Source: Alphaproteobacteria bacterium
Lineage (GTDB): Bacteria > Pseudomonadota > Alphaproteobacteria > RF32 > CAG-239
Length of the DNA stretch: 64,000 nt
Assembly: GCA_017480745.1 (NCBI GenBank)
Contig: JAFUSA010000008.1
Span: 10,530-74,529, forward strand
Reading direction: 5' to 3'
Under the pieces are notes generated by a model that ran no database searches, was not told the origin of the DNA, and worked only from the letters and a program-made list of their open reading frames with translations. Numbering within the stretch: position 1 is the stretch's first letter; every line of letters starts with the position of its first letter. Of this stretch, positions 12,588 to 62,924 are shown one piece after another. A program made the position numbers and the translations under genes.

Positions 12588-12850
12588 TGACTTTTAGATT
12601 TTTTATGGTAGTATAGAAACAGAACTTCGGTTCGGAGCCTTCATAAGCTCTTATTAATTCCGATGCCTTGCATCGTTAATAGACATGATAAATATCTCCG
12701 ACATGGTTGGGGAGCGTTTTGCGGATGTTCAGGGTGTTAGCCTAAAGGTAAGACGGATCATTTGAATTAATATGGTTTATGAACTCTCCCGACCGCCGTT
12801 TGGCGGTTAGATTTTTATTAATATATAACTTTAACTTAGGAGATAAAATT
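12588..12850 (+). promoter_or_regulatory. class-A pilin-cassette promoter (TTGACT..TGGTAGTAT) + ~230-nt conserved structured 5' leader ending in terminator-like hairpin GACCGCCGTTTGGCGGT + U-run
   Basis: Near-identical to leaders at 35296..35555(-), 40133..40519, 46082..46350 and 62657..62924(-). Internal hairpin CUCCGAC/GUUGGGG shows compensatory changes between copies. Confidence 0.7.
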
Positions 12851-13669
12851 ATGAGAAATTTAGAAATAAAAAATAATGATTGCCACGCTGCGCTCGCAAT
12901 GACGAAAAGCGTGCAGTCCGGACGCTCACTTCTTCCGGAGAGTGGTGCAGATGCGCCGACTGTTTTGAGCGCCGTGTACACAGATAGTACACCAGCGAAA
13001 AACAGGCAAGCAGATGTGCCGCAATACGGGAGAAGTATGATAGAAATGTTGGGTGTGTTGGCCATAATCGGTGTTTTATCGGTTGGCGGAATCGCCGGAT
13101 ATAGTAAGGCGATGACTAAATATCGCATCAATAAAACCATTGAGCAGGTAACCCTTATTGCCGGTAATGTGCGTGCCTTTTGGGGACCACAGAAGAATTA
13201 TGAAGGGGTGTGTTGTAATGGAGGTGATTGCAACGCCTCCGGTTGCTATGGGCATTCCGGCGTTGATGCAAACGGATATCTTACCGCTGATTACAATGGC
13301 TGTCCGATAGTTAAAAAAGCCAAAATATTCCCTGATGAAATGATTACTGTAACTGATGGCAAGATTATGTCTATTAGCAATCCTTTCGGTGGTGGGGTTA
13401 GTTTAAATCAAACGAGTAAAAGTTATAGTGATAATGATAACAAAGCCTTTATTATCGAACTTTATAATATCCCAGAAGAAGCGTGTATTGAATTAGCTAC
13501 TTATGATTGGACAGTTGCCGGAGCAGATATAATAGGTTGGGAATATGCGGATATAACATACACAAAAGTTCCGCTTGATTTGGAAACCGCGGTTAAACAA
13601 TGTGAAGAATCTCATGATTTTTTTACCTTTGTGTTTGATGCAGATACGGTTTCATGGATGAATAACTAA
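12851..13669 (+). CDS. type IV pilin-like protein (prepilin-type N-terminus; long 57-aa leader peptide with in-frame 37-codon insertion), paralog 1
   Basis: Start at ATG after AGGAGATAAAATT. Motifs ...YGRS|MIEMLGVLAIIGVLSVGGIAGY (G-1, E+5), KKAKIFPDEM, PEEACIELATYDW, and C-terminal Cys (AVKQCEES). Confidence 0.7.
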   Translation: MRNLEIKNNDCHAALAMTKSVQSGRSLLPESGADAPTVLSAVYTDSTPAKNRQADVPQYGRSMIEMLGVLAIIGVLSVGGIAGYSKAMTKYRINKTIEQVTLIAGNVRAFWGPQKNYEGVCCNGGDCNASGCYGHSGVDANGYLTADYNGCPIVKKAKIFPDEMITVTDGKIMSISNPFGGGVSLNQTSKSYSDNDNKAFIIELYNIPEEACIELATYDWTVAGADIIGWEYADITYTKVPLDLETAVKQCEESHDFFTFVFDADTVSWMNN

Positions 13670-13674
13670 ATATC

Positions 13675-13707
13675 CGCCGGCTCGAGTGAGTCGGCGGTTA
13701 CTTTTCA
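13675..13707 (+). terminator. conserved cassette terminator CCGCCGGCTCGAGTGAGTCGGCGG + T-run
   Basis: The same hairpin recurs after the pilin-like genes at 41247 and 47135. Confidence 0.65.
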
Positions 13708-13715
13708 ATAATCGA

Positions 13716-14411
13716 TTATTGATTTATGTTAAACCAATGTACAGCAGCGGCACATTGCTCTTCCGTTTTGCCTTTTACACGGCAACGATTAACTTCTATT
13801 ACCGGAGTTTTATCCATAGTATAGCAACCATTTCCCAAAAGCATGGTGTCTATGTATGTCCGCACACCAGGATTAACCTGCACCATTTGCACATTAGTGC
13901 TGATTTCCGGCCATTTTAGTTTCAGGCTTATATTGCTTAATTTTTCTGTCATATCATTCAAAACATACAATCTGAAAGAGCAGCGAACCATATTATCCAT
14001 TCCCTTTTCCAACTTGTAGTTATCATAATATACAAGAATTTTGCGGTTGTCATCATCGTTTTCAAATACAACTCCGTCATCATCAAAACGAATTTCAAAA
14101 ACGGTCCCTAAACTGTTATCATATTTTTTTTCGTCATCATCTTTGTTGCGACCGAAGCTACCCAAAGTATTTTTTGCTGGTGTCAAAACTTCGTAGTCCG
14201 TTTCTTCCTCCACCACATTTTCATCTTCTGCAGCTGAGTTTTGCAAACTTTCCATTGTTTGACGCAAAGGCTTATCTGTGCCAATACGGCGGTTAACAGC
14301 CGGCTCCGTCTTTTTTGCCGACGGAGCAGAGCCGGGAGCGAATGTTTGCGCCGTTGCCGCACCGCAAACAAAAGCACTCATCAAAAAATAAAGTAACGCC
14401 AGTTTTTTCAT
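13716..14411 (-). CDS. secreted hypothetical protein (paralog of 14420..15124; shared Cys-containing domain at the C-terminus)
   Basis: Signal peptide MKKLALLYFLMSAFVCGAATA. CSFRLYVLNDMTEKLSNISLKLKW and VNRCRVKG match CSFILTVYNRMAEEITEATMNLKW and VNNCIVAG in the neighbour. Confidence 0.5.
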   Translation of the reverse strand: MKKLALLYFLMSAFVCGAATAQTFAPGSAPSAKKTEPAVNRRIGTDKPLRQTMESLQNSAAEDENVVEEETDYEVLTPAKNTLGSFGRNKDDDEKKYDNSLGTVFEIRFDDDGVVFENDDDNRKILVYYDNYKLEKGMDNMVRCSFRLYVLNDMTEKLSNISLKLKWPEISTNVQMVQVNPGVRTYIDTMLLGNGCYTMDKTPVIEVNRCRVKGKTEEQCAAAVHWFNINQ

Positions 14412-14419
14412 AAAAAACC

Positions 14420-15198: not shown

Positions 15199-15981
15199 CT
15201 ATATCTCCGTCAATTTTCTTTGCAAACGCATAAAATCACTCCAAGATTTTGCTTTTTGGTTTGGTGTGCGCAACAAAAATGCCGGATGATAGGTTGATAA
15301 TGTAGGAATTACCTTGCCTTGCGAAGTGGTATAATCCGTAAAATGACCACGCAGAGACGATATAGAATCAACATTTTCTAAAACAGCGTTAGCAGCACTT
15401 CCTCCCAACAAAATAATAACCTTAGGATCAACCAACTCAATTTGCCGGCGCAAAAACGGTAAACACACCGCAACTTCGCCATCTGTTGGGGTTCTGTTTC
15501 CGGGAGGTCGCCATGGCAATATATTGGAAATAAAGCAATCTTCTCGTTTTAAGCCGATAGCAGCAATCATTTTATCCAAAAGGCCACCGCTTTTGCCGAC
15601 AAAAGGTTTACCTTCTCTATCTTCATCTGCTCCCGGAGCTTCACCAATAAACATAACAGCGGCGTTTGGATTACCATAGCCGAAAACCGTTGAATTAGCC
15701 GAAAATTTGAGTGAACAACCGTCAAAACTTTCCACAGCTTTTTTTAATTCCGACAAATTATTTGCTTTGGCGCAAAGCTCACGTGCATTCAAGCGTGCAC
15801 TATCATTTGCCTGTGCCAAATCGGTTATCGCCGGACGCATTGCCGCAACAACCGGTACCTTCCGCACAACCTTATTTTCTGGCAAAGGCGGTGTATCAAG
15901 CGCATTAAACGTTTCATCGGCGCAAATATCTTCTACTCCGGCTAAAACATACCATTTAATAACTTCGGCCAAATTTTCCAT
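15199..15981 (-). CDS. uracil-DNA glycosylase, family 4
   Basis: Motif FIGEAPGADEDREGKPFVGKSGGLL, a C-terminal HPS-type motif (YHPAFLLR), and an N-terminal extension. Confidence 0.75.
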   Translation of the reverse strand: MENLAEVIKWYVLAGVEDICADETFNALDTPPLPENKVVRKVPVVAAMRPAITDLAQANDSARLNARELCAKANNLSELKKAVESFDGCSLKFSANSTVFGYGNPNAAVMFIGEAPGADEDREGKPFVGKSGGLLDKMIAAIGLKREDCFISNILPWRPPGNRTPTDGEVAVCLPFLRRQIELVDPKVIILLGGSAANAVLENVDSISSLRGHFTDYTTSQGKVIPTLSTYHPAFLLRTPNQKAKSWSDFMRLQRKLTEI

Positions 15982-18022: not shown

Positions 18023-18261
18023 TTGACTTTTTGATTTTTTATGATATAGTCGATACAAGATGAGGTAAAATTCATCTGGGGTGTCAAGACCTCTTAGAGT
18101 CGTCGTGAAGACGTTAAATGATTTCCGGCCTTGGTCGGAAGGTGGGTGAATAAGGTCAGTCGAATAATCCACACTGTTACTCTAATAGTCTTGAACTTCC
18201 GGCCGCCTCAACATGGCGGTTGTTTTGGTGTAATGTCAACAATTTAGAAAGGAAGTTTACT
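18023..18261 (+). promoter_or_regulatory. class-B pilin-cassette promoter (TTGACT-16-TGaTATAGT) + ~200-nt conserved leader ending in hairpin CCGGCCGCC..GGCGG + U-run
   Basis: Shares promoter and 3' hairpin with class A, but has a different middle (ACAAGATGAGGTAA..). Second copy at 53303..53546. Confidence 0.7.
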
Positions 18262-18909
18262 ATGAAAAACTTAGAGATAAAAAATAATGATTGCCACGCT
18301 GCGCTCGCAATGACGAAAAGCGTGCAGAGCGGTCGTTCAATGATAGAGATGCTTGGAGTGTTAGCTATCATCGGTGTTTTGTCTGTCGGTGGAATCGCCG
18401 GATATTCAAAGGCAATGATGAAGTATAGAATTAACAAAACTATTGAGCAAATAACACTCATTGCCGGCAATATTCGCACCTTTTTTGCAAACCAGAGAAA
18501 TTATAAAGGCGTATATTGTTTTTGTAATAACGGCAGTTGCACAGGTCAATCTTCCGGTGATGGCTGTCCTATACATAAAAAAGCCAAAATATTCCCTGAT
18601 GAAATGATTACCATAACTGATGGTAAGATTATGTCTATTACCAATCCTTTCGGTGGTATGGTTGATTTAACAGCAGAGGAAGATAATAAAGCATTCAGTA
18701 TACGATATATAATTCCGGAAGAAGCCTGTATTGAACTTACTTCTCGGGATTGGTCAAATTCTAATATTAATTATATTGGCTTTTATTATAACCATCATCA
18801 AGAGTATATTAAAGTACCATTAAATATTGACGATGCTATTCAACAATGTTCAGCCACGGCGGCTGATACAAATAGCGGAGATGCTATTATATACTTATAT
18901 AGTGAATAA
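18262..18909 (+). CDS. type IV pilin-like protein, paralog 2
   Basis: Start MKNLEIKNNDCHAALAMTKSVQSGRS|MIEML... Cys cluster CFCNNGSCTGQSSGDGCP, then KKAKIFPDEM, PEEACIEL and C-terminal QQCS. Confidence 0.7.
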   Translation: MKNLEIKNNDCHAALAMTKSVQSGRSMIEMLGVLAIIGVLSVGGIAGYSKAMMKYRINKTIEQITLIAGNIRTFFANQRNYKGVYCFCNNGSCTGQSSGDGCPIHKKAKIFPDEMITITDGKIMSITNPFGGMVDLTAEEDNKAFSIRYIIPEEACIELTSRDWSNSNINYIGFYYNHHQEYIKVPLNIDDAIQQCSATAADTNSGDAIIYLYSE

Positions 18910-18921
18910 ATAAGGATAGTT

Positions 18922-26991: not shown

Positions 26992-27627
26992 TTACTTTAT
27001 TAGTTTATGCAATTTTTCCACCACCTCGTCAAACATTTGCTGTGTTAAAACGTTAGTATTGATGTTATAACGCGAAGTATGGTAAGAATCTACAAGAACA
27101 ATATTATGCTGCGGCAATATATGTTCCGCGCCGTGGGCAAATTTATATGCCGATTTCTTATAATTAAGCGCTTGTAAAACTGCACCGTGTGAAACCGCAC
27201 CAAGACACAAGATAACTTTCAAATTTGTCATAGCGGCAATTTCTTGTTGCAAATACGGACGGCAGGCGGTAATTTCGTCGGCTGTAACTTTATTTTGCGG
27301 CGGAACACAACGAACCGAGTTGGTAACTCTCACATTAAGCAATTCAAAACCGTCATCTTTTATTTTTCCATAGTTACCACGGGCAAATCCATATTTTTTT
27401 AGTGCGGGATATAAAACATCTCCGGCGTAATCGTTAGTAAACGGGCGATTGGTTTGATTAGCACCGTTCAATCCAGGAGCCAAACCGACAATCAATATTT
27501 GCGCTGTCAATTCACCAAAAGATTCCACCGGACCATTATGGTATTTAGGAAATTTTTGCTGATTTTGTGCACGAAACTTTAATAAACGAGGGCACCCCAT
27601 ACATGAAAAATCCGGACACTTAAACAT
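26992..27627 (-). CDS. uracil-DNA glycosylase superfamily protein (GLAPG motif, family 4/5-like)
   Basis: Start moved to MFKCPDF after AAAGGAGAATATA. FSCMGCPRL Fe-S-like Cys and VGLAPGLNGANQTNRPFT. Long palindrome terminator at 26900..26945. Confidence 0.6.
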   Translation of the reverse strand: MFKCPDFSCMGCPRLLKFRAQNQQKFPKYHNGPVESFGELTAQILIVGLAPGLNGANQTNRPFTNDYAGDVLYPALKKYGFARGNYGKIKDDGFELLNVRVTNSVRCVPPQNKVTADEITACRPYLQQEIAAMTNLKVILCLGAVSHGAVLQALNYKKSAYKFAHGAEHILPQHNIVLVDSYHTSRYNINTNVLTQQMFDEVVEKLHKLIK

Positions 27628-28367: not shown

Positions 28368-29027
28368 TTAATAAAACTTCCACGCAATAGCATTGCTTGA
28401 AGGATGCATGCAAGCTTCCGCGGCTTCAACCAAAGTAAGCGGATCCGAAGTTGTGTTGGTTGTTCCCGCTGCTGCCCCACAAGCAATGGCTTTTCCATAT
28501 CCGGCAATTTTTGTGCAACCTTGATAAACTTGCTGCATACTTTCAATATCTTCGTTTATACCAATAGCAACAAAACCTGAACTGCTGGCAGAACCCCAAT
28601 CACGAGAAGCAATAGAAATGCAGGCTTCCCGCGGAATATAGTAATAATAAATCATAAAAGCGGCGTTATCCCCCTCTTCAAGCAAATCGCCGCGCATAAC
28701 AGCAACGGCTTTACCGAAAGGACTTTTCAAAGATTTTGTGCCATCAGCGGCAATATTTACCATTTCATCAGGTAACACTTTTGATTTTTCCAACAAGGTA
28801 ATATTTGTATCTGTTCCCAAAGGAGCATAATCATCTTTTGTGCCAAACAAAGTTCTTAATGTTGACGCAATATACGAAACCTGACTCATTGTTCTATTAA
28901 TTCTGAATTGCATCATTGCCTTTGAATATCCTGCAATTCCGCCAACACTTAATACACCTATAATAGCCAACACGCCCAGCATTTCTGCCATACTGCGACC
29001 ACTGCTGATTTTACACTCATTTTTCAT
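28368..29027 (-). CDS. type IV pilin-like protein, paralog 3 (short leader MKNECKISSGRS|MAEML; lacks the long conserved 5' leader RNA)
   Basis: Start after GGAG, with its own TTGCAA..TATATTATA promoter. PREACISIASRDWG and C-terminal AAEACMHPS. Confidence 0.65.
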   Translation of the reverse strand: MKNECKISSGRSMAEMLGVLAIIGVLSVGGIAGYSKAMMQFRINRTMSQVSYIASTLRTLFGTKDDYAPLGTDTNITLLEKSKVLPDEMVNIAADGTKSLKSPFGKAVAVMRGDLLEEGDNAAFMIYYYYIPREACISIASRDWGSASSSGFVAIGINEDIESMQQVYQGCTKIAGYGKAIACGAAAGTTNTTSDPLTLVEAAEACMHPSSNAIAWKFY

Positions 29028-34671: not shown

Positions 34672-35295
34672 CTATTTAAAAACAAATGTAATCGCACATA
34701 AACTGTTTGTGCAAGTGCATCCTTCAACCGCATCATCAACAGATACCGGCAAATCATCTCTACACACAGAATAAAGGCCCTTTTCACGATAATTGCATAT
34801 ACCGTATGGCTGCATGTTAGAGCTACCTAACGAATCTAAGTTTCCAAATAATATTCCTTGTGTTTCATTCGGCCAATCATGTGAAACAAGGCTAACACAA
34901 GCCTCTTCCGGAATATCACTGAAGCTCAAGTAGAAAGCCTTTGGGTTTGAATGATCCGAAAATATATATACCCCACTTCCATAAACACTGTTTATCTCAT
35001 CTTCATTCCACATTTCATCGGGAACCAATTTTGCCTTTTTCAAAATAGTTTTAACATCATTTTTGTCACCACTTGCTCCATAATCTTTTATATCTTCATA
35101 ATTTTTTTGCGAAGCAAAAAAGGCTCGCACATTACCGGCAATGAGAGTTATTTGTTCAATGGTTTTGTTAACCCGATATTTCATCATTGCTTTTGAATAT
35201 CCGGCAATACCACCAACGGAAAGAACACCAATAATGGCTAATACGCCCAGCATCTCAATCATTGAGCGTCCGGATTCTGCATTATATGTTTTCAT
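34672..35295 (-). CDS. type IV pilin-like protein, paralog 4
   Basis: MKTYNAESGRS|MIEMLGVLAIIGVLSVGGIAGY..; KKAKLVPDEMW; PEEACVSLVSHDW; C-terminal CTCTNSLC. Confidence 0.7.
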   Translation of the reverse strand: MKTYNAESGRSMIEMLGVLAIIGVLSVGGIAGYSKAMMKYRVNKTIEQITLIAGNVRAFFASQKNYEDIKDYGASGDKNDVKTILKKAKLVPDEMWNEDEINSVYGSGVYIFSDHSNPKAFYLSFSDIPEEACVSLVSHDWPNETQGILFGNLDSLGSSNMQPYGICNYREKGLYSVCRDDLPVSVDDAVEGCTCTNSLCAITFVFK

Positions 35296-35555
35296 TTTTA
35301 AATCTCCTTCTTGAAAAAATTTGACATTAATAACTAATCAACCGCCAAACGGCGGTCGGGAAGTAAGAAAATCATAGAATTGCAAATGATCCTCGTAATC
35401 TTTAAGCTAATGCTCTGAACATCCACCACGAGCTCCCCAACCCAAGTCGGAGATACATCAATATAACGGCGTCAAGCGCCGACAATTCTAAGAGCTTTCT
35501 TAGGGCCCGAACCGAAGTTCAACTCCTATATTATCACAAAAAACGCAAAAGTCAA
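35296..35555 (-). promoter_or_regulatory. class-A pilin-cassette promoter + structured leader (minus strand)
   Basis: Reverse complement matches the 12588..12850 element end to end. Confidence 0.7.
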
Positions 35556-40132: not shown

Positions 40133-40519
40133 TTGACTTTTAGATTTTTTATGGTAGTATAGAAACAGAACTTCGGTTCGGGGCTTTAGCAAGCTCTTAT
40201 TAACCTCGGTGTTTTTTAACATCGTCAAAAAATATGATGAATATCTCCCAACATGGTTGGGAAGCCTGTGATGGATGTACAAGGAATAATCCCAAAGGTT
40301 GCAGGAATCATTTAGGTTAATATGATTTGCTAACTTCCCGGCCGCCGTTTGGCGGTTTTTTCGTTATAAAATAACCATTACTCCGGTTATTTTTAAGGAA
40401 AGAACCACAGAGCAAGTGACCGAAGCGTAATTAGCGATTGCCAAGCGTTAGAGTAGGCAGAGCTTATGAAGCAAGAAGTTTTTTACTAATAGATATTTCT
40501 CAAGAAAGGAGATAAAATA
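40133..40519 (+). promoter_or_regulatory. class-A pilin-cassette promoter + leader, with ~150-nt extra segment between the terminator hairpin (40337..40361) and the SD
   Basis: Matches the other class-A leaders. The extra segment contains AGTGACCGAAGCGTAATTAGCGATTG, related to GAGTGACCGAAGCAAGCGTAGCGATG at 39986. Confidence 0.7.
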
Positions 40520-41230
40520 ATGAAAAAAATAAATAATCAAAATGGTCGTTCGATGATAGAAATGTTGGGTGTGTTGGCTATAATCGGTGTTTTGTCGGTT
40601 GGTGGAATCGCCGGATATTCCAAAGCCATGATGAAGTATCGTATTAACAAAACTATTGAGCAAATAACACTTATTGCCGGTAATGTGCGTGCATTTTTTG
40701 CTTCGCAAAAAAATTATGATGGTTTAGATTCTGCCAACGTAGGTAGTGATAATGGTTTAGCGCTAATTAAAAAAGCTAAATTGGTAAATGAAGAAATGAT
40801 TGATGAAAATAATGAAATTGTTGATGAAGATTTATCTCACACTCATCATATCTTTAATTCATTCGGAGGTGGTGTTGCATTGTGGGACGATTATCAAGGA
40901 ACTGCCAATGTCCCAGGAACCCCTCATACTAAATATTTTCAGATTATATATTTTCGTTTACCACAAGAGGTATGTATAGAATTGGTAACTCAAAATTGGA
41001 GTAATTCGGCCATGGGTTTGAAAGTATTGATTATAAATTCTAAGGAAGAGCTTGATGAATTTGGCAATGTAAAGGATTCGTGTTCAGATAACAATGGTTT
41101 AATAAACGGTACTAAGACAATTGCCTGCCCGAATGGAAAAACTGTACCGATTCCGGTACCGTTGGATATAGCAGTTGATGCTTGCAATTGTCCAAATAAT
41201 GACTGCACCATTATATGGGGATTTAAATAA
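40520..41230 (+). CDS. type IV pilin-like protein, paralog 5
   Basis: MKKINNQNGRS|MIEML...; KKAKLVNEEM; PQEVCIELVTQNW; C-terminal DACNCPNNDC. Confidence 0.7.
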   Translation: MKKINNQNGRSMIEMLGVLAIIGVLSVGGIAGYSKAMMKYRINKTIEQITLIAGNVRAFFASQKNYDGLDSANVGSDNGLALIKKAKLVNEEMIDENNEIVDEDLSHTHHIFNSFGGGVALWDDYQGTANVPGTPHTKYFQIIYFRLPQEVCIELVTQNWSNSAMGLKVLIINSKEELDEFGNVKDSCSDNNGLINGTKTIACPNGKTVPIPVPLDIAVDACNCPNNDCTIIWGFK

Positions 41231-41246
41231 AAAAAATAAAAGAAAA

Positions 41247-46081: not shown

Positions 46082-46350
46082 TTGACTTTTAGATTCTTTA
46101 TGATATAGTAGAAACAGAACTTCGGTTCGGAGCTCTGAAAAGCTCTTAAATACTTCGGTGTTTTAGATAATACCGTGAAAGTGATATAAAAATATCTCCC
46201 GAAAAGGTCGGGAAGCTCGTAACGGATGTTCAGAGCTTTTAGCTCAAAGGTTGCGAGAGTCATTCAAGTATTTATGATTTTTCAGCTCTCCCGACCGCTA
46301 TTTGGCGGTCATGTTTTTAATGTATAACTATTAGCAAAGGAGATAAATTT
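46082..46350 (+). promoter_or_regulatory. class-A pilin-cassette promoter + structured leader
   Basis: Same architecture, with hairpin GACCGCTATTTGGCGGTC + ATGTTTTT before the SD AAAGGAGATAAA. Confidence 0.7.
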
Positions 46351-47118
46351 ATGATAAACTTAGAAATAAAAAATATAAAGAGTCATCCCTCGCTGAGCCT
46401 TGCCAAGGCGAAAGCGTCAAGGGATCTTCAAATTAATTTTAATCAAGCGGAAGATGCCTTGACGATTCCTGCGGAATCAAAGCATGACTATAAGTGTGGC
46501 TCCGCCACACAGAGCGGAAGAAGCATGATAGAGATGTTGGGCGTTCTTGCAATAATCGGTGTTTTATCGGTTGGTGGAATCGCCGGATATTCCAAAGCGA
46601 TGATGAAGTATCGTATTAACAAAACTATTGAACAAATCACTTTAATTGCCGGTAATGTGCGTGCTTTTTGGGGACCACAGGGAAATTATAATGGTTTCTA
46701 TTGTGATTGTTCAAGTGAAAGTTATGATTTTTGCTCAGGTCAAGCAAATAATGATGGTTGTCCTATAATTAAAAAAGCCAAATTATTGCCGGATGAAATG
46801 CTGACTATTGATAGCACAACAGGCAAAATTACCAATATTACCAACGCGTTTGGCGGATTATTGTGGACAAAAGATCTCAATTATGGAGGATTTATATTGG
46901 AATTTCGAGATATTCCAACAGAAGCCTGCATTGATATCATTACACAAAATTGGAAAGATGTAAAAGTAGAAAATATAGGGGTAGCAAATGGAGCCGGACG
47001 GCCTGATGTAAGCGCAACGCCGATTGACATAGACACAGCCATTAATTTATGTCAACATGGTGATCATAATAATTTACATTTTCAAGTAGAAAGTAAGGAT
47101 ACGAGTTGGTTGGATTAA
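46351..47118 (+). CDS. type IV pilin-like protein, paralog 6 (62-aa leader peptide)
   Basis: MINLEIKNIK...ATQSGRS|MIEML..; CDCSSESYDFCSGQANNDGCPIIKKAKLLPDEM; PTEACIDIITQNW; C-terminal NLCQHG. Confidence 0.7.
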   Translation: MINLEIKNIKSHPSLSLAKAKASRDLQINFNQAEDALTIPAESKHDYKCGSATQSGRSMIEMLGVLAIIGVLSVGGIAGYSKAMMKYRINKTIEQITLIAGNVRAFWGPQGNYNGFYCDCSSESYDFCSGQANNDGCPIIKKAKLLPDEMLTIDSTTGKITNITNAFGGLLWTKDLNYGGFILEFRDIPTEACIDIITQNWKDVKVENIGVANGAGRPDVSATPIDIDTAINLCQHGDHNNLHFQVESKDTSWLD

Positions 47119-53262: not shown

Positions 53263-53302
53263 ATATATGAAATTGAAAAAATTTTAAACTCTCAAAAAAT
53301 AT

Positions 53303-53546
53303 TTGACTTTTGATTTTTTTGTGTTATAGTAAACACAAGATGAGGTAACTTATCTGAGGTATCCTAACCTCTTAGCATTCGTCTTTATAGACGTAAATTA
53401 TTCCGACAGTGGTCGGAAGGTCGCGGAATAGAATGGATATTTAATATGCGACACTATTTAATGCTAATAGTTAGGAACTTCCGGCCGCCTCATTAGAGGT
53501 GGTTATTTTAATGTAATTCAACAACAAAAATGAAAGGAAGTTTACT
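53303..53546 (+). promoter_or_regulatory. class-B pilin-cassette promoter (TTGACT-16-TGtTATAGT) + leader
   Basis: Matches 18023..18261 in the ACAAGATGAGGTAA.. block, ..CCTCTTAG.., GGTCGGAAGG, and the final CCGGCCGCC..GGTGG hairpin + TTATTTTA. Confidence 0.7.
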
Positions 53547-54182
53547 ATGAATAACTTTGAAATAAAAAATCAAAACGGACGCTCTATGATAGAAATGTTA
53601 GGCGTGTTGGCAATCATTGGCGTATTATCTGTTGGCGGAATCGCCGGATATTCTAAGGCGATGACTAAATATCGCATCAATAAAACGATTGAGCAAATAA
53701 CGTTAATTGCCGGCAATGTGAGAGCATTCTTTGCTCCGCAAGGAAATTATGACGGATTAAATCCACTTGTTGACACAGGAAAAGCAATTATCAAAAAAGC
53801 TAAACTTGTGCCCGATGAAATGTGGGACGGTAATAATATTAAAAATGTTTGGGGAAATTCTGTTTCCCTCGATTCGGCGTCTAAATCTTCTTTCGGGGAT
53901 AAGAAGGCATTTAAGATACAGTATTTAATGCCAACGGAATATGATATATGTATTGAAATTCTTAGTTACGATTGGACAAATGCCGGAGTAAAGTTTATAA
54001 TTCTTTCAGGTCCGTCATCCGTCAAAAATGCTAAAGCGCCGTTTAGCTTGGAACAGGCTATTGATTTTTGCACTAAATGGCTGAGTAGTCCTGCAAATAA
54101 GACTATGGAAGCAATACCCTCACAATTTTATTTTGATGTTAATGATAACTGCATCCACGGCGAGGGAACTGGTTGTAATTAA
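53547..54182 (+). CDS. type IV pilin-like protein, paralog 7
   Basis: MNNFEIKNQNGRS|MIEML..; KKAKLVPDEMW; YDICIEILSYDW; C-terminal DFCTKW. Followed by terminator AAGGCGGAG..CTCCGCCTTTTCT. Confidence 0.7.
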   Translation: MNNFEIKNQNGRSMIEMLGVLAIIGVLSVGGIAGYSKAMTKYRINKTIEQITLIAGNVRAFFAPQGNYDGLNPLVDTGKAIIKKAKLVPDEMWDGNNIKNVWGNSVSLDSASKSSFGDKKAFKIQYLMPTEYDICIEILSYDWTNAGVKFIILSGPSSVKNAKAPFSLEQAIDFCTKWLSSPANKTMEAIPSQFYFDVNDNCIHGEGTGCN

Positions 54183-54228
54183 AAAATATAATTAGACTTC
54201 AAAAAGGCGGAGAATTACTCCGCCTTTT

Positions 54229-54501
54229 CTACTCCGCCACTGTTTCTCCGTTCATAATTTTTCGGCTGAGTTCTTTTTTGTAGGCCTTTTTTTGCTTTTT
54301 CATCATTTTTTTGGCGTGTTTAATACATTTTTTAGTGCTTATATTTTCGTCTTGTAAACACTCTTGCAATGATTTACGAACTTCGTTATCCATTTTTTGG
54401 CATTCGGCGTTCATTTTGTGCATTTCGTTATGCTCCGCCATTGCCGGCAAAACAGTTGCAAAAGTTATTGCCGCGCACAAACAGGCAAGTGTTTTCCTCA
54501 T
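54229..54501 (-). CDS. small secreted Lys-rich hypothetical protein
   Basis: Signal peptide ..VLPAMA|EH; 90 aa. Confidence 0.35.
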   Translation of the reverse strand: MRKTLACLCAAITFATVLPAMAEHNEMHKMNAECQKMDNEVRKSLQECLQDENISTKKCIKHAKKMMKKQKKAYKKELSRKIMNGETVAE

Positions 54502-55048: not shown

Positions 55049-56881
<1,833 letters not shown>

Positions 56882-56889
<8 letters not shown>

Positions 56890-57217
56890 TTTTGATGATT
56901 TACACAGCCGTGATGTGCAAAAAAAACTGCTACATAAAACGGAATTATTGAAAAATCGTCCGGAAAACCGTTTTAATACAGACTTCGGAATGATAGCTTC
57001 TTTGGGTGGAGTTATTATTGTTCCCATTCTTATCGGAGTGTTTTCAGGCAGTTATTTAGAAGAAAAATTTCCTCAACATTTTTCTTGGCGTCTGTCTTTA
57101 ATATTTTTGGGTTTTGTTTGGGGAATAATAAACGCTTATTTGTGGATTAAGAATGAAAACAGAAAAATAATACAAAACAATTCGGAAGATACACAAAAGA
57201 GGGATAAACATGAATAA
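56882..57217 (+). CDS. N-ATPase accessory membrane protein AtpQ (Atp1/gene 1 family)
   Basis: 111 aa with 2 TM helices; sits at the position of 'gene 1' in N-ATPase operons. Confidence 0.55.
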
Positions 57218-57551
57218 CGATCTGCTTAATACTTTGTGGCAACAGACGGAAATATGGCGTTTATTTGCTACATTTTTTGCCGGAATAATCGTAGGATATG
57301 TGTATTTTGCCAGTTTGCATTGGAGCATAGAACATTTGGGCGAATTTAAGCATAAATATCGTATGTTTGCTACGGTTGCCTTGTTGCGGATGTCAATGTT
57401 TTTTGCCGTATTGGTTTTAGCGTGTCAACGCAATGTCATTTTGATTTTGCTATATATTTTGACTTTCTTTTTCACACGCATTTTTATGATTTGGCACTTT
57501 AAAAATTCAGACGATAAAAAAGAGGAAAAACGCGATGGAATGGAAAGTTGA
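57210..57551 (+). CDS. N-ATPase accessory membrane protein AtpR
   Basis: 113 aa with 3 TM helices and an intramembrane Arg (VALLRMSMFFAVL), as in AtpR. Confidence 0.6.
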   Translation: MNNDLLNTLWQQTEIWRLFATFFAGIIVGYVYFASLHWSIEHLGEFKHKYRMFATVALLRMSMFFAVLVLACQRNVILILLYILTFFFTRIFMIWHFKNSDDKKEEKRDGMES

Positions 57552-58287
57552 TTTTTCTAATCTCCTTGATTTTCCTCTGATTGATGAAGAAATCAGAATG
57601 ACCAACTTTGATGATATTGATATCATCAGTATTGGGGGTATAGGAATAAACGTTACCATCTTCAACAGTTGGATAGTTATTGCTCTAATCACCCTTTCTG
57701 CGTGGCTAATTACCCGCAATTTAAAATACGATAGAGAAGTTTCAAAAATTCAAATATTTTTAGAAAGTCTGGTTATGTGGCTGAAAAATGAAGCAAAAGA
57801 AACCAGTGGCTCAAATAATTTGCAATATTTAGGTATGGCAATGGGGCTGTTTTGCTTTATTGTTGTTGCCAATCTGCTGACTTTTATTCCATGGTTTAGG
57901 CCACCTACGGCTTCACTCAGCACAACAATGGCTTTGGCATTTATCGTTTTTTTGGCAATTCCTTATTTTGCCATTAAAAATGCCGGAATAAAAGCTTATT
58001 TTCGCAAATTCATAGAACCTATACCGCTTATGTTGCCAATGAACATATTCAGCGAATTTTTTTCAGTGTTGGCTATGGGTTTACGTTTGTTTGGCAATAT
58101 GCTAAGCGGAGTTATGTTTGCCGGTATTTTAAGTGCATTTATTCCTTTTTTTGCACCTCTTACCATGCAAACTTTGGGGTTACTTACAGGATCAATTCAA
58201 GCTTATATTTTTGCTTTGCTGGCGATAGTTTATTCGTCCGGCGTAAAAGAAAATAAAATCACTGAAATTAATTTAGAGGAGAAATAG
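57535..58287 (+). CDS. atpB: N-ATPase a subunit
   Basis: Stator Arg in GLRLFGNM, 5-6 TM helices. Confidence 0.8.
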   Translation: MEWKVDFSNLLDFPLIDEEIRMTNFDDIDIISIGGIGINVTIFNSWIVIALITLSAWLITRNLKYDREVSKIQIFLESLVMWLKNEAKETSGSNNLQYLGMAMGLFCFIVVANLLTFIPWFRPPTASLSTTMALAFIVFLAIPYFAIKNAGIKAYFRKFIEPIPLMLPMNIFSEFFSVLAMGLRLFGNMLSGVMFAGILSAFIPFFAPLTMQTLGLLTGSIQAYIFALLAIVYSSGVKENKITEINLEEK

Positions 58288-58288
58288 T

Positions 58289-58558
58289 ATGGATTCTTAT
58301 GCAATTATCGGGGCAGTTTCTATTTTTGGAGCATGTATCTGTATGGGAATAGGTAGTTTAGGGTCAGCTTTAGGAGAAGGCAATGCTGCCGCTGCCGCAA
58401 TTTCGGCAATGGCGCAACAGCCGGATGAAGCAAGTCGTTTGCGTTCTACAATGTTTGTATCTTTGGCAATGATTGAAACTTCATCTTTATATGCCTTGTT
58501 AATAGCTTTTTTGACTTTGTATGCCAATCCGTTTTGGAATTATGCCATCAATCAATAA
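58289..58558 (+). CDS. atpE: N-ATPase c subunit (hairpin; helix-2 ETSSLY motif plus helix-1 Glu)
   Basis: 89 aa, GxGxGxG helix 1 containing ALGEG, and helix 2 AMIETSSLYALL. Confidence 0.85.
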   Translation: MDSYAIIGAVSIFGACICMGIGSLGSALGEGNAAAAAISAMAQQPDEASRLRSTMFVSLAMIETSSLYALLIAFLTLYANPFWNYAINQ

Positions 58559-58574
58559 ATATTGAGGAGCGACT

Positions 58575-59351
58575 ATGGGTATCGACTTATTTACCTTTAC
58601 GGCGCAGGTTATTAACTTAATAATTTTGCTATTTTTACTGCGTAAGTTTTTATATATTCCGGTATTGAAAGCCGTTGATGAACGGCAAAAGCTTATCTCG
58701 GCCGAATTAAACAGCGCAAAAAACGCTCGTCGCAGAGCCGAGCTTTCCGCGCATGAATATGAAAACAAAATGCAAGAGTTAGAAACACAAAAACAAACAA
58801 TTTTGCTACAAGCAAAAGAACAGGCCGAAAAGCTTTCTAAACAGTTGCAATCAGACGCCAAAAAACAATACCAAAAGTCGCAAAAACAATGGAAAGAGCG
58901 TTTGCTCTCCGAGCAAGATAATTTTGAAACCGCTTTGCAAAAAACAGTGGCAGAACATTTTAACCGCTTTGCGCAAAAAGCATTACAGGAAATGGCCGGA
59001 ACAGACGTTAACAACTTAATGCTACGGCAATTAAAGGAAAAAATAAAACGCACAACATTGCGAGAAAGAGCCGATTTTGCTAATGCGTTCAGCGGCAAAA
59101 AAATTGTTATTGAAAGTGCAAAAACGTTGTCAACCGAAAGCAAAAAAGACTTAGAAACATTTTTGCATCAACAATGGAATTTGCCGGAAAATCTTAAATT
59201 TTCCTATGTAACAAATCCAGAGCTTATCAGCGGCTTGGCTTTGCAAGCACAAGAGCAACGCATTGAATGGAGTTTAAGCGGTTATTTGCAAGACTTTCGC
59301 AAAAATATGAATGACGAAATTCTGCAACTGTTAACGAAAGGCGAAAGATAA
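58575..59351 (+). CDS. atpF: N-ATPase b subunit with delta(OSCP)-like C-terminal extension
   Basis: N-terminal TM helix, long coiled coil, and a C-terminal ISGLALQAQEQRIEWSLSGYL delta-like segment. No separate delta gene. Confidence 0.7.
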   Translation: MGIDLFTFTAQVINLIILLFLLRKFLYIPVLKAVDERQKLISAELNSAKNARRRAELSAHEYENKMQELETQKQTILLQAKEQAEKLSKQLQSDAKKQYQKSQKQWKERLLSEQDNFETALQKTVAEHFNRFAQKALQEMAGTDVNNLMLRQLKEKIKRTTLRERADFANAFSGKKIVIESAKTLSTESKKDLETFLHQQWNLPENLKFSYVTNPELISGLALQAQEQRIEWSLSGYLQDFRKNMNDEILQLLTKGER

Positions 59352-60868
59352 TGGATACGGAAAAAACATTTGCTGCCATAGATAGAAGCATAAAAAAAAC
59401 AAATGCTAAATTAAAAAAAGAAGAAGTTAGTGTTGTGCGCTCAATTTCCGCCGGCGCTGCTATTGTCAGCGGTTTGGAAAAGGTAGAAATGGAGGAACTG
59501 TTAGAATTTCCGAACGGTGTTTTCGGAATGGTGCAAACACTTAACAGAGATTCTGTCGGTGTAGTTTTTTTGGATAGTTCCCGTTCCATAAAGGCAGGTG
59601 ATAGAGTGCAACGAACCGGCCGCGTTTTAGATGTTCCGGTATCGGAAAATCTGCTCGGGCGCGTTATCAATCCACTTGGAACTGCGTTAGACGGTAAAGC
59701 TCCAATTGCTTTCAGCGAGCGACGCAAAGTAGAGGTAGAAGCCGTGCCGATTATGGACAGAGCACCGGTAGATACACCGTTGCAAACCGGCATTAAGGCC
59801 GTTGATTCGTTTACGCCTATCGGACGCGGGCAACGTGAGCTTATTTTAGGAGATCGTCAAACCGGTAAAACGGCTATTGCACTCGATACTATGATTAACC
59901 AAAAAAACAGCGGCGTTATAAATATTTATTGTGCCATCGGGCAGCGCAATTCCGCTGTTTCCGGAGTTATTGCCGATTTGGAAAAATATGATGTTTTGCA
60001 AAATACAATAGTTGTTGTCGCTTCGGCTAATGACGAGGCCGGAATGCAATATGTTGCCCCATATGCGGCCACCTCAATCGGCGAATATTTTATGGAAAAA
60101 GGACGTGATGTGCTGATAGTTTATGATGATTTAACCAATCATGCCAGAGCCTACCGACAAATGTCGTTGTTGTTGCGTCGACCACCGGGACGCGAGGCTT
60201 TTCCGGGAGATATTTTTTACATTCACTCACGTCTGTTGGAGCGTTCAACACATTTGCGAGAGGAACTTGGCGGCGGTTCACTTACTTCTTTGCCGATTGT
60301 AGCAACCGAAGCCGGTAACATTTCCGCCTATATTCCTACTAACATTATTTCCATTACCGACGGGCAAATTTATTTATCGGCTCCAATGTTTCAAAAAGGT
60401 ATTATGCCGGCGATAGACACGGGAAAATCCGTTTCACGCGTAGGTGGAGATGCTCAATTACCGGCTTATAAATCGCTAATCGGACCGCTTAAATTGTTTT
60501 ATGCTCAATTTGAAGAGTTAGAATCATTTACAAAGTTCGGCACTCAACTGGATAAGGAAACACAAAAACGCATTGCCCGAGGACAAGCCATTCGCTTTGT
60601 TTTGGAACAAAGGCAATACCATCCTTTGCCGGCGGCAGATCAAATTGCCGTATTTATGAGCGCCAACGCCGGTTTATTTGACGGTTTGAACAATGAGAAG
60701 AACAATAAAGCGCAACAAATCGTTTTGGATGTTTTTCATACTCAGTTTGCCGATTTGCAGGCAGAAATAAATGCCCGAAAAAAACTGACCGAAGAGGAAA
60801 TAGCAGAATTAATTAACGCCATCAAACAAGGTTTAATACGAGAGGAATTATATTCTGATGCCGATTGA
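59351..60868 (+). CDS. atpA: N-ATPase alpha subunit
   Basis: Walker A GDRQTGKT. Confidence 0.9.
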   Translation: MDTEKTFAAIDRSIKKTNAKLKKEEVSVVRSISAGAAIVSGLEKVEMEELLEFPNGVFGMVQTLNRDSVGVVFLDSSRSIKAGDRVQRTGRVLDVPVSENLLGRVINPLGTALDGKAPIAFSERRKVEVEAVPIMDRAPVDTPLQTGIKAVDSFTPIGRGQRELILGDRQTGKTAIALDTMINQKNSGVINIYCAIGQRNSAVSGVIADLEKYDVLQNTIVVVASANDEAGMQYVAPYAATSIGEYFMEKGRDVLIVYDDLTNHARAYRQMSLLLRRPPGREAFPGDIFYIHSRLLERSTHLREELGGGSLTSLPIVATEAGNISAYIPTNIISITDGQIYLSAPMFQKGIMPAIDTGKSVSRVGGDAQLPAYKSLIGPLKLFYAQFEELESFTKFGTQLDKETQKRIARGQAIRFVLEQRQYHPLPAADQIAVFMSANAGLFDGLNNEKNNKAQQIVLDVFHTQFADLQAEINARKKLTEEEIAELINAIKQGLIREELYSDAD

Positions 60869-61736
60869 AGCCTTAAAAAGACGAATTAAAACAACCGAAG
60901 ATTTGCGCGAAATTGTCAATAATATGAAAATGCTTTCGTCGGTGAGTATTGGTCAATATGAACAAGCAAACGCCGTTTTAGATAAATATCGCCGCAACAT
61001 TCGCGATGCCTTTCATGCATTGATAATTAATCACGGAATTCCAAACATTAATAAACAGGCAATTATCAAAAATAAATATCTGTATGTTTTAATCGGCTCG
61101 GATAACGGAATGATCGGACGCTTTAATAAGGAAATTATTGAGGCCGTAAACAAGGATATGAAGCAACGTCATATTGCCAAACAAGATATTATTTTTATGA
61201 TTTTAGGCAAGCGTTTGGCAATGATGTCTGAGCAAACCGGTTGGAATTTATGGACATGTTACGGTATGGTTAACTCAGTAAAAGCCGTTGCCGGTTTGGC
61301 TGGAAGCGTAATTTTAAAAATAGATGAAGCAACCCGCAAAGAGCATGTTACAAATGTTTCCGTTTGGTTTCATCAGCGCAAAAACAACTCAACCGTTAAT
61401 TTGGAAAAACGCGATATTATTCCGTTTGCCGTAGAGCGTTTGCATAAGCTCAAAGCGCAAAAATGGGAAACGAATAATATTCCGATGTTACCGGTGGAAC
61501 CGCAAAAAATGTTTGCTGCTTTGGTCAAAGAAATGTTGATGAGTGCACTTTCAAAATTGATTAATTCTTCTTTGGCGGCGGAGCATTATACGCGTATGAC
61601 CAATATGCAAAATGCGGAAAAAAATATTGATGAAAACTTGGCTATTATGAATTTGGAATATCAACAACAGCGCCAAGAGGAGATAACCGACGAATTAATC
61701 GACGTTATCTCCGGCGCCGAAGCTATGAAAAAATAA
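60858..61736 (+). CDS. atpG: N-ATPase gamma subunit
   Basis: 292 aa; N- and C-terminal coiled-coil helices; overlaps atpA. Confidence 0.75.
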
Positions 61737-61755
61737 GGTTATTTTTTCGCTCAAC

Positions 61756-61917
61756 GGCTTAGGATTGCTCGGCTACGAGGCAATTATGACGCGCGATTAT
61801 CCGGTAGTTTTCGGCACACTATACATCTTCGGCCTCTTGGGCTTAGTGATGAAACTAATCAGCGATATTACCTATTCACTGGTTGACCCGCGAATTAATT
61901 TTGAAAGCAACCGATGA
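61756..61917 (+). pseudogene. remnant of the C-terminal ~50 codons of an OppB/DppB-type ABC peptide permease
   Basis: Hand translation gives ..[55 protein letters not shown]. That matches the universal permease C-terminus (..RDYPVV..LL.DL.Y..VDPRIR), and no upstream body is present. Confidence 0.55.
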
Positions 61918-61981
61918 TAGGAAACATCGCCAATAGTTATTATGATGAGGCGCATTATAAGCAACTTTTCCGGTAAAATTG

Positions 61982-62656
61982 TTATTTATCAAATAGCAAA
62001 CGTAATGACGGACAAAGTGAAGTAAAATTATAAGATTTACATCCTTGCAATGCTGTAGAACAAAGAGAAACAGCATCTTCAAGACTAACAGTAGTGGTAT
62101 TAAAGTCATAAATATCTCGTGGATAATCTAAGCCAACAGATGATGCACCGGTATTACTCCAATCTTGACTGATCAACTCAATACACACTTCTTCGCTATA
62201 TGCTATTTGGTAATCAATATAAAATCCTCTTGTACCATACGTATCTAAATTAGTATTACCACCAAAAGCATTGCTAATCTCCGTAATTAATCCTGCGTTG
62301 TCTGTTACAACCATCTCATCGGGCAATATTTTAGCTTTTTTAATTACCGGACAACCATCACCGGATGATTGCCCCCCGCAAGGACTATTATTACACTCAC
62401 AATGCACTCCGTCATAATTGCCTTGCGGGGCAAAAAATGTTCTCACATTACCGGCAATAAGTGTTATTTGTTCAATCGTCTTATTGATGCGATATTTTTG
62501 CATTGCTTTTGAATATCCGGCTATTCCGCCAACCGATAAAACGCCGATTATGGCCAACACACCAAGCATTTCTATCATCGAACGACCACTCTGAGTGTTC
62601 TCTGTCATTGTGAGCGCAGCGTGGCAATTTATATTTTTAATTTCAAAGCTTTTCAT
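61982..62656 (-). CDS. type IV pilin-like protein, paralog 8
   Basis: Start MKSFEIKNINCHAALTMTENTQSGRS|MIEML..; CECNNSPCGGQSSGDGCPVIKKAKILPDEM; SEEVCIELISQDWS; C-terminal LCSTALQGC. Confidence 0.7.
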   Translation of the reverse strand: MKSFEIKNINCHAALTMTENTQSGRSMIEMLGVLAIIGVLSVGGIAGYSKAMQKYRINKTIEQITLIAGNVRTFFAPQGNYDGVHCECNNSPCGGQSSGDGCPVIKKAKILPDEMVVTDNAGLITEISNAFGGNTNLDTYGTRGFYIDYQIAYSEEVCIELISQDWSNTGASSVGLDYPRDIYDFNTTTVSLEDAVSLCSTALQGCKSYNFTSLCPSLRLLFDK

Positions 62657-62924
62657 AATTACATCTCCTTTTACAGAAAAACTGTTGATAAAAGACAATG
62701 CCGCCCAAAACGGCGGCAGGGGAGTTCGTAAATCATGTTATGGTAAATGACCCTTGCAATCTTTAAGCTAACGCTCTGAACATCCACTGCAAGCTCCCCG
62801 ACCAAATCGGAGACATTTATCACATATCCAATAACGGTGTAAGAAACACCTACCATAACAAGAGCCTACGACAGCCCCGAACCGAAGTTCTGTTTTACTA
62901 TACCACAAAAGTGGCAAAAGTCAA
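62657..62924 (-). promoter_or_regulatory. class-A pilin-cassette promoter + structured leader (minus strand)
   Basis: Reverse complement matches the class-A consensus, including GAACTTCGGTTCGGGGC, CTCCGATTTGGTCGGGGAG and the CTGCCGCCGTTTTGGGCGGC + T-run hairpin. Confidence 0.7.

Follow-up and report, generated by a model that had tools for sequence, protein, structure and literature searches.

Dispersed type IVb pilin-like paralogues behind candidate attenuator leaders in a gut alphaproteobacterium

A stretch of 64,000 nucleotides from an alphaproteobacterium of the CAG-239 lineage (GenBank assembly GCA_017480745.1, contig JAFUSA010000008.1, positions 10,530 to 74,529), here called the window, encodes eight paralogous pilin-like proteins whose genes stand singly among housekeeping genes. 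The eight proteins are very probably genuine type IVb pilin subunits. Seven of their genes are preceded by a structured leader RNA of about 200 nucleotides (nt), which was missed by a preliminary description of this DNA and has the anatomy expected of a transcription attenuator. Taken as a whole, the arrangement is likely to be one of individually transcribed type IVb pilin paralogues that serve a single machine encoded elsewhere and are gated by attenuator leaders. The dispersed paralogues would then plausibly form a variable surface repertoire, which is the reading preferred here.

Eight pilin paralogues

A six-frame motif scan and a family hidden Markov model, both run over the window, find the same eight open reading frames (ORFs) with the motif GRSM(I/A)EML and no ninth. 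They are lettered A to H in window order, with cysteines numbered as in paralogue G, and make up 8 of about 67 genes, roughly one gene in eight. Their ATG codons (Table 1) match exactly the positions given in the preliminary description, and a Shine-Dalgarno (SD) sequence precedes each of them. All eight proteins share the N-terminal string G↓RSM(I/A)EMLGVLAIIGVLSVGGIAGYSKAM (the arrow marks the predicted cleavage site), an invariant GRSMIEMLGVLAIIGVLSVGGIAGYSKAM segment and, as aligned, the block G-R-S-M-x-E-M-L-G-V-L-A-I-I-G-V-L-S-V-G-G-I-A-G-Y-S-K-A-M; an (E)ACIEL..DW motif is visible in the same alignment, and two cysteines, C135 and C175, are invariant. These shared motifs had been reported correctly, except that KKAK[LI]xP[DE]EM is found in seven paralogues, C having EKSKVLPDEM. 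Leader peptides, counted up to and including Gly(-1), measure 9, 9, 10, 11, 24, 24, 56 and 60 residues, and are thus as long and variable as claimed, over a range of 9-60 rather than 8-62. The cluster CxCxxxxCxGxxxxDGCP, previously assigned to four members, is exact in B and H; the version in F is three residues longer, and that in A is arranged differently.

Some of the leader peptides carry motifs of their own. In that of A (12851-13030), a module, LSAVY..T..K.RQAD..Q.GRSM, comes after a second 'SGRS' site; it recurs in a pilin of another genome (locus L069, about 5883-6020) and is consequently conserved rather than a scar. The motif M+N(L/F)EIKNxDCHAALAMTKxxQSG is common to the long pro-regions of B, H, A and several homologues.

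Several independent comparisons place these proteins among the type IVb major pilins, which bears out and sharpens the earlier label 'type IV pilin-like'. The Pfam models PF08805 (PilS_N) and/or PF05307 (Bundlin) score above gathering in all eight, and both do so in seven (22.5-43.2 bits; cut-offs 22 and 22.3). Each protein has Gly(-1), Glu(+5) and then a hydrophobic helix of about 20 residues, in the arrangement G↓RSMIE(+5)MLGVLAIIGVLSVGGIAG. Structure prediction, which had been proposed as a check, gave an AlphaFold2 model of G from a 94-sequence alignment (predicted local distance difference test 85.8, predicted template modelling score 0.79) with a 51-residue N-terminal helix (residues 15-65) followed by an alpha/beta domain, the lollipop fold of pilins. 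The five top Foldseek matches of this model in the PDB are 8uhf TcpA (two chains), 3s0t CofA, and 3fhu and 1q5f PilS, with probabilities of 0.91-1.00. The family profile also matches BfpA (1zwt, E = 1.9e-6) with both cysteines aligned; C135 and C175 are present in at least 90% of the 94 homologues and are predicted to form the D-region disulfide. Finally, annotated 'type 4 pilus major pilin' genes of enterobacterial plasmids match G with 29% identity over 81% of its length. In their Pfam matches and in the long alpha-1 helix with an alpha/beta domain, the window proteins thus resemble TcpA of Vibrio cholerae, CofA of enterotoxigenic Escherichia coli, BfpA (bundlin) of enteropathogenic E. coli and PilS of R64 and Salmonella Typhi; they also resemble type IVb pilins in Gly(-1), Glu(+5), a residue other than Phe at +1, long leader peptides, a mature size of about 200 residues and two cysteines that bracket the D-region.

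Between the window paralogues, 13.9 codons of the 29-codon N-terminal block differ synonymously and 0.25 non-synonymously. The paralogues are thus old genes under extreme purifying selection on the N-terminal block, as would be expected if all were processed alike and packed their helices in one filament. The same figures bear on the idea that the cassettes are silent copies that donate sequence by gene conversion to a single expressed locus, in the manner of pilS and pilE of Neisseria. A large set of paralogues that agree at the N-terminus and vary in their C-terminal regions would suit such a system, and the one to three pilins found in the machinery operon of relatives (see below) could be its expression site. 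The pilS copies of Neisseria are dispersed and have variable C-terminal parts, as here, but they are promoterless and 5'-truncated and act by gene conversion, whereas each of the window copies has a complete ORF with its own start codon and SD and encodes a leader peptide and the N-terminal helix, and seven have a strong promoter. Synonymous saturation, at about 14 of 29 codons, excludes gene conversion as the source of the N-terminal identity, at least in the form of recent homogenising events, and no recombination-guiding repeats flank the cassettes. A donor role is therefore highly improbable, and the reading of the paralogues as separately expressed subunits is retained.

A leader RNA with two alternative folds

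Seven of the eight cassettes have a near-identical promoter with TTTGACTTTT as the -35 element and a TATAGT-like -10 element; this pattern has 11 matches with at most two mismatches, where 1.4 would be expected. The region upstream of C is different and simpler, so that the earlier statement that each gene has its own promoter of this kind stands for seven. The conserved terminator described at the same time is a 3' hairpin, CCGCCGGCTC-N4-GAGTCGGCGG, common to A, E and F only; C and G end in unrelated hairpins with T-runs, and no canonical 3' terminator follows B, D or H.

Between promoter and SD, the same seven cassettes contain the leader, which is absent from C. Five of the leaders (A, D, E, F and H) are of one flavour, type 1, and the other two (B and G) of another, type 2; single-sequence folds of both have the same architecture (minimum free energy z-scores of -3.9 and -3.4): a 5' hairpin P0, a tripartite closing helix P1a-c, a four-way junction with P2, P3 and P4, and a GC hairpin with a U-run. 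Comparative evidence supports this fold. Among the five type-1 copies, 25 of 57 pairs are compensatory (RNAalifold), and a covariance model of the junction core (R1), built from B and G, recovers these two and also, weakly but end to end, the type-1 leaders E and H. For the four-way junction, pairing holds in 94.2% of cells, where slid controls give 40-53%, and 28 of 35 pairs have changed on both sides, with a covariation score of 0.625 against 0.05-0.10 in the controls.

A second helix, incompatible with the first, is equally well supported by covariation. In it the 3' arm of P3 (Y, GRYYGGAAGG) pairs with a strand, Z, that consists of CUUCC and the next four nucleotides. Every one of 51 unique leaders has Y and Z paired at all four variable positions, where shuffles reach a maximum of 45-48, and the exchanges seen include TA/CG/AT and GC/AT. 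The four variable nucleotides of Z are the first four of the 5' arm of the terminator in 40 of 43 scorable leaders, and the terminator follows the core directly in 60 of 62 unique leaders. Type 1 shows the same logic by inspection, with X = UCUCCGAC, Y = GUUGGGGA and Z = CUCUCCCGAC, where Z overlaps the terminator GACCGCC...GGCGGUU. Two mutually exclusive, covariation-supported helices, one of which overlaps the terminator, indicate a two-state attenuator, and on these grounds there is a high probability that the leader attenuates transcription. In state I, the closing helix and three hairpins would form the four-way junction, and the intrinsic terminator would stop transcription before the ORF. 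In state II, Y would pair with CUUCC and the first three to four nucleotides of the terminator stem, giving a three-way junction that resembles the small RNA (sRNA) sRNA-Xcc1 and blocks the terminator. Cassette E has about 120 nt more (40359-40480) between the leader terminator and the SD-proximal segment, with no significant similarity to the other cassettes; the idea that this is a decayed long leader-peptide region was dropped, its similarity being no better than that of shuffles.

An exhaustive scan with the covariance model found no leader in the window beyond those of the seven pilins. At least 15 other genomes have a type-2 leader immediately ahead of a pilin homologue, and nhmmer searches with type 1 gave few copies outside the window; type 1 seems to be restricted to close relatives. 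A search pattern of three blocks, made up of junction nucleotides only, was matched exactly at 120 or more sites in metagenomes from gut and rumen. At least 26 of the 81 leaders that were read precede pilins of the family, and most of the others precede lipoproteins, signal-peptide or outer-membrane-protein-like proteins, Cys-rich secreted proteins, polysaccharide or lipopolysaccharide (LPS) glycosyltransferases, an epimerase and a few XRE regulators. Genome loci add BspA-like leucine-rich-repeat proteins, a lipoprotein and a MORN-repeat protein. Because of these downstream gene classes, the leader appears to mark a cell-envelope regulon, and its distribution suggests that it links pilins, lipoproteins, outer-membrane proteins and glycosyltransferases in that regulon.

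At the gathering threshold, no Rfam family matches the leader in the whole window. When two leaders and 15 metagenome loci were searched at E <= 10, only sRNA-Xcc1 (RF02221) recurred, below threshold, and neither GEMM-I/II nor any other Rfam riboswitch matched. The sRNA-Xcc1 scores are 24.7 bits for the B leader and 29.0-38.9 for 5 of the 15 metagenome leaders, against a gathering score of 53, and the alignment to state II spans model positions 1-87. These sub-threshold matches fall on the 3' domain of the leader (window 18133-18212; in fetched loci, L121 106-188, L097 1459-1545, L138 92-174, L087 1039-1127 and L110 246-334). By the Rfam criterion the leader is not a member of the sRNA-Xcc1 family, and the resemblance is a lead for homology. 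It comprises a GC-rich closing helix (GgCcGGggG/CccCCgGcC in sRNA-Xcc1, GRYYGGAAG/CUUCCRRYC in the leader), AAUA/GAAUA internal-loop residues in the first hairpin, a second hairpin, a U-rich tail and a position upstream of a gene (there symE) in the same orientation; unlike sRNA-Xcc1, the leader has an extra 5' half (P0, P1, P2 and the 5' arm of P3) that forms the competing four-way junction. sRNA-Xcc1 is described as a trans-acting sRNA. It was discovered in Xanthomonas as a transcript of about 88 nt (PMC2996969), and integron cassettes carry it ahead of symE, in the orientation of that gene (bioRxiv 10.1101/2025.06.18.660453). The comparison raises the thought that the Xanthomonas RNA may be a cis-acting leader of a related kind.

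A ligand or a protein presumably sets the winning fold, and the two flavours may answer different signals. That the leader is a small-molecule riboswitch is conceivable, though on balance doubtful. Riboswitches for c-di-GMP precede pilin and adhesin genes, such as pilA1 of Clostridioides difficile, and have a terminator-based expression platform; the leader resembles them as a structured 5' leader with a terminator ahead of type IV pilin and surface genes, but differs in its four-way junction alternating with a three-way junction. A serious candidate, if still short of probable, is a leader that is governed by a protein antiterminator or NusG paralogue, serves as a docking site for an sRNA or RNA chaperone, or acts as an RNA thermometer. 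RfaH with its ops/JUMPstart element, LoaP with EAR and the UpxY proteins of Bacteroides are systems in which NusG paralogues recognise short DNA or RNA elements. Their regulons resemble the envelope, polysaccharide and pilus genes found here, with long 5' leaders and terminators ahead of dispersed pilus, LPS, capsule and surface-protein genes, and the string GGCGGTAG in some type-2 leaders matches the ops core. This string lies in a covarying stem, however, and is not conserved as sequence, for which reason it was rejected as an RfaH ops element. The SD points to a translational layer: 34 of 61 type-2 leaders (56%) are followed by the SD GGAAG, which 8% of background genes have, and GGAAG(U) is complementary to the invariant ACUUCC strand (window 18240-18262 and 53525-53547; L085-L164), while the SD of type-1 cassettes, GGAGAU, is complementary to AUCUCC. 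An additional layer of translational control is possible from this complementarity. Against control by a protein, sRNA or temperature stand the invariant junction nucleotides, the multi-helix junction and the adjacent terminator and antiterminator, which are typical riboswitch anatomy, and the absence of any candidate regulator gene linked to the leader in the window.

Relatives and the pilus machinery

The pilin family is large. A word-indexed search returned at least 7,970 matches, the named ones all being 'hypothetical protein' from metagenome-assembled genomes (MAGs) of uncultured Alphaproteobacteria, and at least ten family members from one MAG are among the top 120 matches. An exhaustive search gave 5,080, 1,539 and 115 representative clusters (50% identity) at E <= 1e-3, 1e-10 and 1e-30, respectively. 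At least 558 copies occur in species-representative genomes, all of them gut or rumen alphaproteobacterial bins such as CAG:495, and the family is restricted to Alphaproteobacteria of the gut and rumen that have not been cultured. The pilin closest to G (86% identity) is one of five family members in 20 kb of DNA with 21 genes, among which are lptCAB, hpf, ptsN, an F-ATPase operon and a tRNA synthetase gene. Dense dispersal is accordingly a property of the lineage.

Relatives also provide a candidate machine. When the fetched loci were screened with HofB, HofC and GspE of E. coli, about ten proved to have pilins of the family between a PilB-type ATPase and PilC-type platform protein on one side and a PilT-like ATPase on the other. 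In locus L070 and the longer L206, the Pfam order is TcpQ, Secretin, PAP_PilO, an unknown protein, T2SSE, T2SSF, three pilins and T2SSE. This is an R64/TCP-style type IVb operon, and in TcpQ, secretin, PilO, T2SSE ATPase and T2SSF platform it resembles the machinery of known type IVb systems. Such operons hold one to three pilins, which start TGRSMVEMLGVLAIIGVLSVGGIAGYSKAM and have the same N-terminal helix as the window paralogues, the 29 N-terminal residues being identical. It follows from these shared N-termini that the dispersed copies are probably alternative subunits of one machine. The proposal that comEC was the only candidate partner is thereby superseded, relatives encoding a complete type IVb machine; comEC itself sits in an lpxI-lpxB-comEC run (37646-39670) without a leader, and nothing was found to support it as a partner. 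The earlier statement that the window lacks pilus assembly genes was correct, Pfam annotation of every other sizeable ORF in the 64 kb having revealed no PilB/C/D/Q or Tad genes, and the locus is indeed not a standard pilin locus as far as its arrangement is concerned.

Other details of these loci may be noted. The first 'pilin' of the operon (L206 12817-13386; L070 5266-5934) has a weak Bundlin score and a different N-terminus (…KKKIYAAAGGGFLLLILTAGYFIGRS…) without the Gly/Glu+5 motif, and may be a pilin-like accessory protein rather than a subunit. Paralogue C was considered as the orthologue of the operon pilins, which it matches only marginally best (125-132 against 102-124 bits), and this was judged too weak. 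A pilin locus of an enterobacterial plasmid, intended as a reference for the machinery, turned out to lack it: on this Klebsiella plasmid (L082, NZ_CP021954.1), two tandem type IVb 'major pilin' genes (8431-9543) adjoin an H-NS gene and a type III restriction-modification system, with no pilus machinery within 9 kb.

The pilin-like N-terminus might serve these proteins solely for export or for anchoring in the membrane; they would then be individual surface or periplasmic proteins, components of a pseudopilus or of an endopilus like that of type II secretion systems, or secreted adhesins, and not major subunits that form filaments. No machinery gene adjoins any of the eight, the number of paralogues is extreme, Arg stands at +1, some leader peptides reach 56-60 residues and contain a second GRS site, and the leader RNA groups pilins with lipoproteins and outer-membrane-like proteins, not with pilus genes, all of which could be taken in this sense. 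On the other hand, the proteins have the size and fold of type IVb major pilins and not of pseudopilins of about 140 residues. Their 29 N-terminal residues recur in pilins encoded between the platform protein and PilT-like ATPase of relatives, and the strong purifying selection on the N-terminus is as expected for helix-helix packing in a filament core. A non-filament function is for these reasons improbable, and subunits of a type IVb pilus remain the better description.

The cassettes could also be mobile-element cargo, carried by a phage, plasmid, integron or a promoter element akin to a miniature inverted-repeat transposable element (MITE), with the leader as a terminal inverted repeat. 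The G cassette is 85% identical at the nucleotide level, from promoter to terminator, to the cassette of a relative (window 53300-54300 against L084 9749-10739) amid different genes, namely SodC/MutT in the window and DHO-dehydrogenase/F-ATPase in L084; the similarity between cassettes starts abruptly, 0-25 nt upstream of the -35 box, and sRNA-Xcc1, the nearest Rfam relative, is carried on integron cassettes. However, no relatives were found in 2.9 million viral contigs, so that phage cargo was discarded. There are no flanking repeats, integrases, transposases, attC-like sites or target-site duplications around the cassettes or in the window, no recombination sites or mobility genes at the G cassette and its L084 counterpart, and the GC content of the cassettes is that of their flanks. 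Compensatory changes in five stems, a fixed orientation and a fixed distance to the start codon indicate selection on an RNA and not on DNA repeats, which rules out the MITE or terminal-inverted-repeat reading of the leader. Mobile cargo is accordingly a very unlikely explanation of what is better seen as individually transcribed pilin genes.

A proposed account and its setting

According to the account favoured here, a prepilin peptidase would cleave each prepilin after the conserved Gly, and the invariant hydrophobic alpha-1 helix would dock the subunit into one shared type IVb machine encoded elsewhere. The variable globular domains, some with extra disulfide clusters, would give the filament alternative surfaces, which might differ, for instance, in adhesion specificity or antigenic type, or confer resistance to phages specific for pili. 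Seven of the genes would be transcribed from sigma-70-type promoters through the attenuator leader of about 200 nt, and the same leader would gate other cell-envelope genes in the lineage. Co-assembly by one machine, functional diversification of the copies, and the direction and signal of the switch are what we infer from these sequences.

Several observations weigh against this account. All eight proteins stay below threshold on the N-terminal methylation model PF07963 (14.0-17.8 bits against 21.2), a comparison that the preliminary description had suggested, and on TIGR02532 (cut-off 16.3) E, G and H reach 16.3-16.5, B and F 15.8-16.2, A and D about 12, and C gives no score. An accepted type IVb pilin from an enterobacterial plasmid also fails PF07963, at 19.8 bits, and pilins inside the lineage's own machinery operon score 12.8-14.5; because these fail as well, the low scores appear uninformative. 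Long leader peptides and a residue other than Phe at +1, earlier regarded as atypical, are class traits of type IVb pilins, as is a mature size of about 200 residues; Arg at +1 does remain unusual, and we know of no report of it among characterised pilins. The two-state model of the leader is based on covariation rather than experiment, and the switch could depend on a protein or temperature instead of a ligand. In the wider group, only 22 of 104 pilin copies have a recognisable leader and machinery-linked pilins have none, so that the leader is not intrinsic to the pilin family. Searches of the window and of about 1.5 Mb of fetched loci (E. coli GspO as query in tblastn and phmmer; Pfam) brought up no A24 prepilin peptidase, and in this organism the machinery search covered the 64-kb window, where no assembly gene was found.

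Known type IVb systems have one or a few major pilins inside the machinery operon. Unlike these, the lineage has dozens of full-length, monocistronic paralogues scattered among housekeeping genes, with Arg at +1, leader peptides of up to 60 residues, in some cases with a duplicated cleavage motif, and, in the window, mostly behind a structured RNA leader. A closer parallel in arrangement is offered by PilA1-6 of Haloferax volcanii, which have a near-identical hydrophobic N-terminus and differing C-terminal domains, are dispersed, and use one machinery. These are archaeal and number six, whereas the present family is bacterial, type IVb and one to two orders larger; to our knowledge, no RNA leader precedes PilA1-6. 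With regard to the dispersed variable copies of Neisseria, the difference lies in the complete ORFs and in the synonymous divergence discussed above.

The coordinates of pilin genes, promoters, leaders and 3' terminators are collected in Table 1.

Table 1. Features of the eight pilin cassettes (window coordinates; z, minimum free energy z-score; CM, covariance model)
Feature	Coordinates	Strand	Remarks
Pilin A	12851..13669	+	ATG at 12851; 272 residues; 60-residue leader peptide with duplicated GRS site; variant Cys cluster
Pilin B	18262..18909	+	ATG at 18262; 215 residues; 24-residue leader peptide; CxCx4CxGx4DGCP cluster
Pilin C	28368..29027	-	ATG at 29027; 219 residues; divergent, about 40% identity to the others; no structured leader
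Pilin D	34672..35295	-	ATG at 35295; 207 residues; 9-residue leader peptide
Pilin E	40520..41230	+	ATG at 40520; 236 residues
Pilin F	46351..47118	+	ATG at 46351; 255 residues; 56-residue leader peptide
Pilin G	53547..54182	+	ATG at 53547; 211 residues; used for modelling
Pilin H	61982..62656	-	ATG at 62656; 224 residues; 24-residue leader peptide; Cys cluster
Promoter A	12587..12615	+	TTGACT -35, TAGTAT/TATAG -10
Promoter B	18023..18050	+	
Promoter D	35528..35555	-	
Promoter E	40133..40161	+	
Promoter F	46082..46109	+	
Promoter G	53303..53327	+	
Promoter H	62897..62924	-	
Leader A, type 1	12617..12812	+	P0 hairpin, four-way junction, terminator GACCGCC-GTTT-GGCGGTT; z = -3.9
Leader B, type 2	18052..18236	+	core 18078-18199; z = -3.4; CM R1 132.8 bits; covariation
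Leader D, type 1	35344..35526	-	type-1 alignment and covariation
Leader E, type 1	40163..40358	+	CM R1 match, E = 0.006
Leader F, type 1	46111..46316	+	type-1 alignment and covariation
Leader G, type 2	53329..53520	+	core 53356-53481; CM and covariation
Leader H, type 1	62706..62896	-	type-1 covariation; CM match
3' terminator A	13674..13697	+	
3' terminator C	28316-28350	-	
3' terminator E	41243-41274	+	
3' terminator F	47135-47158	+	
3' terminator G	54202-54228	+	

The neighbours of the cassettes, annotated with Pfam, are housekeeping genes: metG, trkH, sspB, rpsD, a miaB-phoH-ybeY-lnt run, lpxI-lpxB-comEC, adhE, lpxA, rsmB, sodC, mutT, an ATP synthase operon and holA. The window has a GC content of about 38%, and a two-piece alpha transfer-messenger RNA (tmRNA) and LpxI mark it as alphaproteobacterial. 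This permuted tmRNA (2885-3215) is followed, with a slight overlap, by sspB (3178-3690), the SsrA-tag adaptor gene. The ATP synthase operon (55052-61736) has the order beta, epsilon, two small ORFs (56882-57217 and 57210-57551), a, c (58289-58558), b, alpha and gamma, an order known from N-type (Na+) ATPases; in locus L084 of the relative, the operon is instead of the conventional F type. Two genes of the uracil-DNA glycosylase superfamily (15199-15981 and 26992-27651) lie within 12 kb.

No published description of the pilin expansion or of the leader RNA was found in the literature searched. The pilins are a new, unannotated, unusually expanded and organised branch of a known class; the leader RNA is itself undescribed, though mechanistically it belongs to a known kind. 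It is a testable orphan riboswitch candidate with strong covariation support; the more specific idea of a new riboswitch class with two sub-classes, possibly related to sRNA-Xcc1, that senses a cellular signal, gates a dispersed cell-envelope regulon and so lets the cell choose among dozens to more than 100 pilins for one machine is unlikely, though worth stating. The host lineage is widespread, but uncultured, in the human and ruminant gut, and its pilins are at present labelled 'hypothetical'. In the accepted picture of the type IV pilus, one or a few major subunits are encoded with the machinery, whereas invariant N-termini combined with differing outer surfaces imply a very large repertoire of subunits for one filament. 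If this is true, a leader-gated choice among pilins would amount to a way of programming the filament surface without a described precedent among type IV pili.

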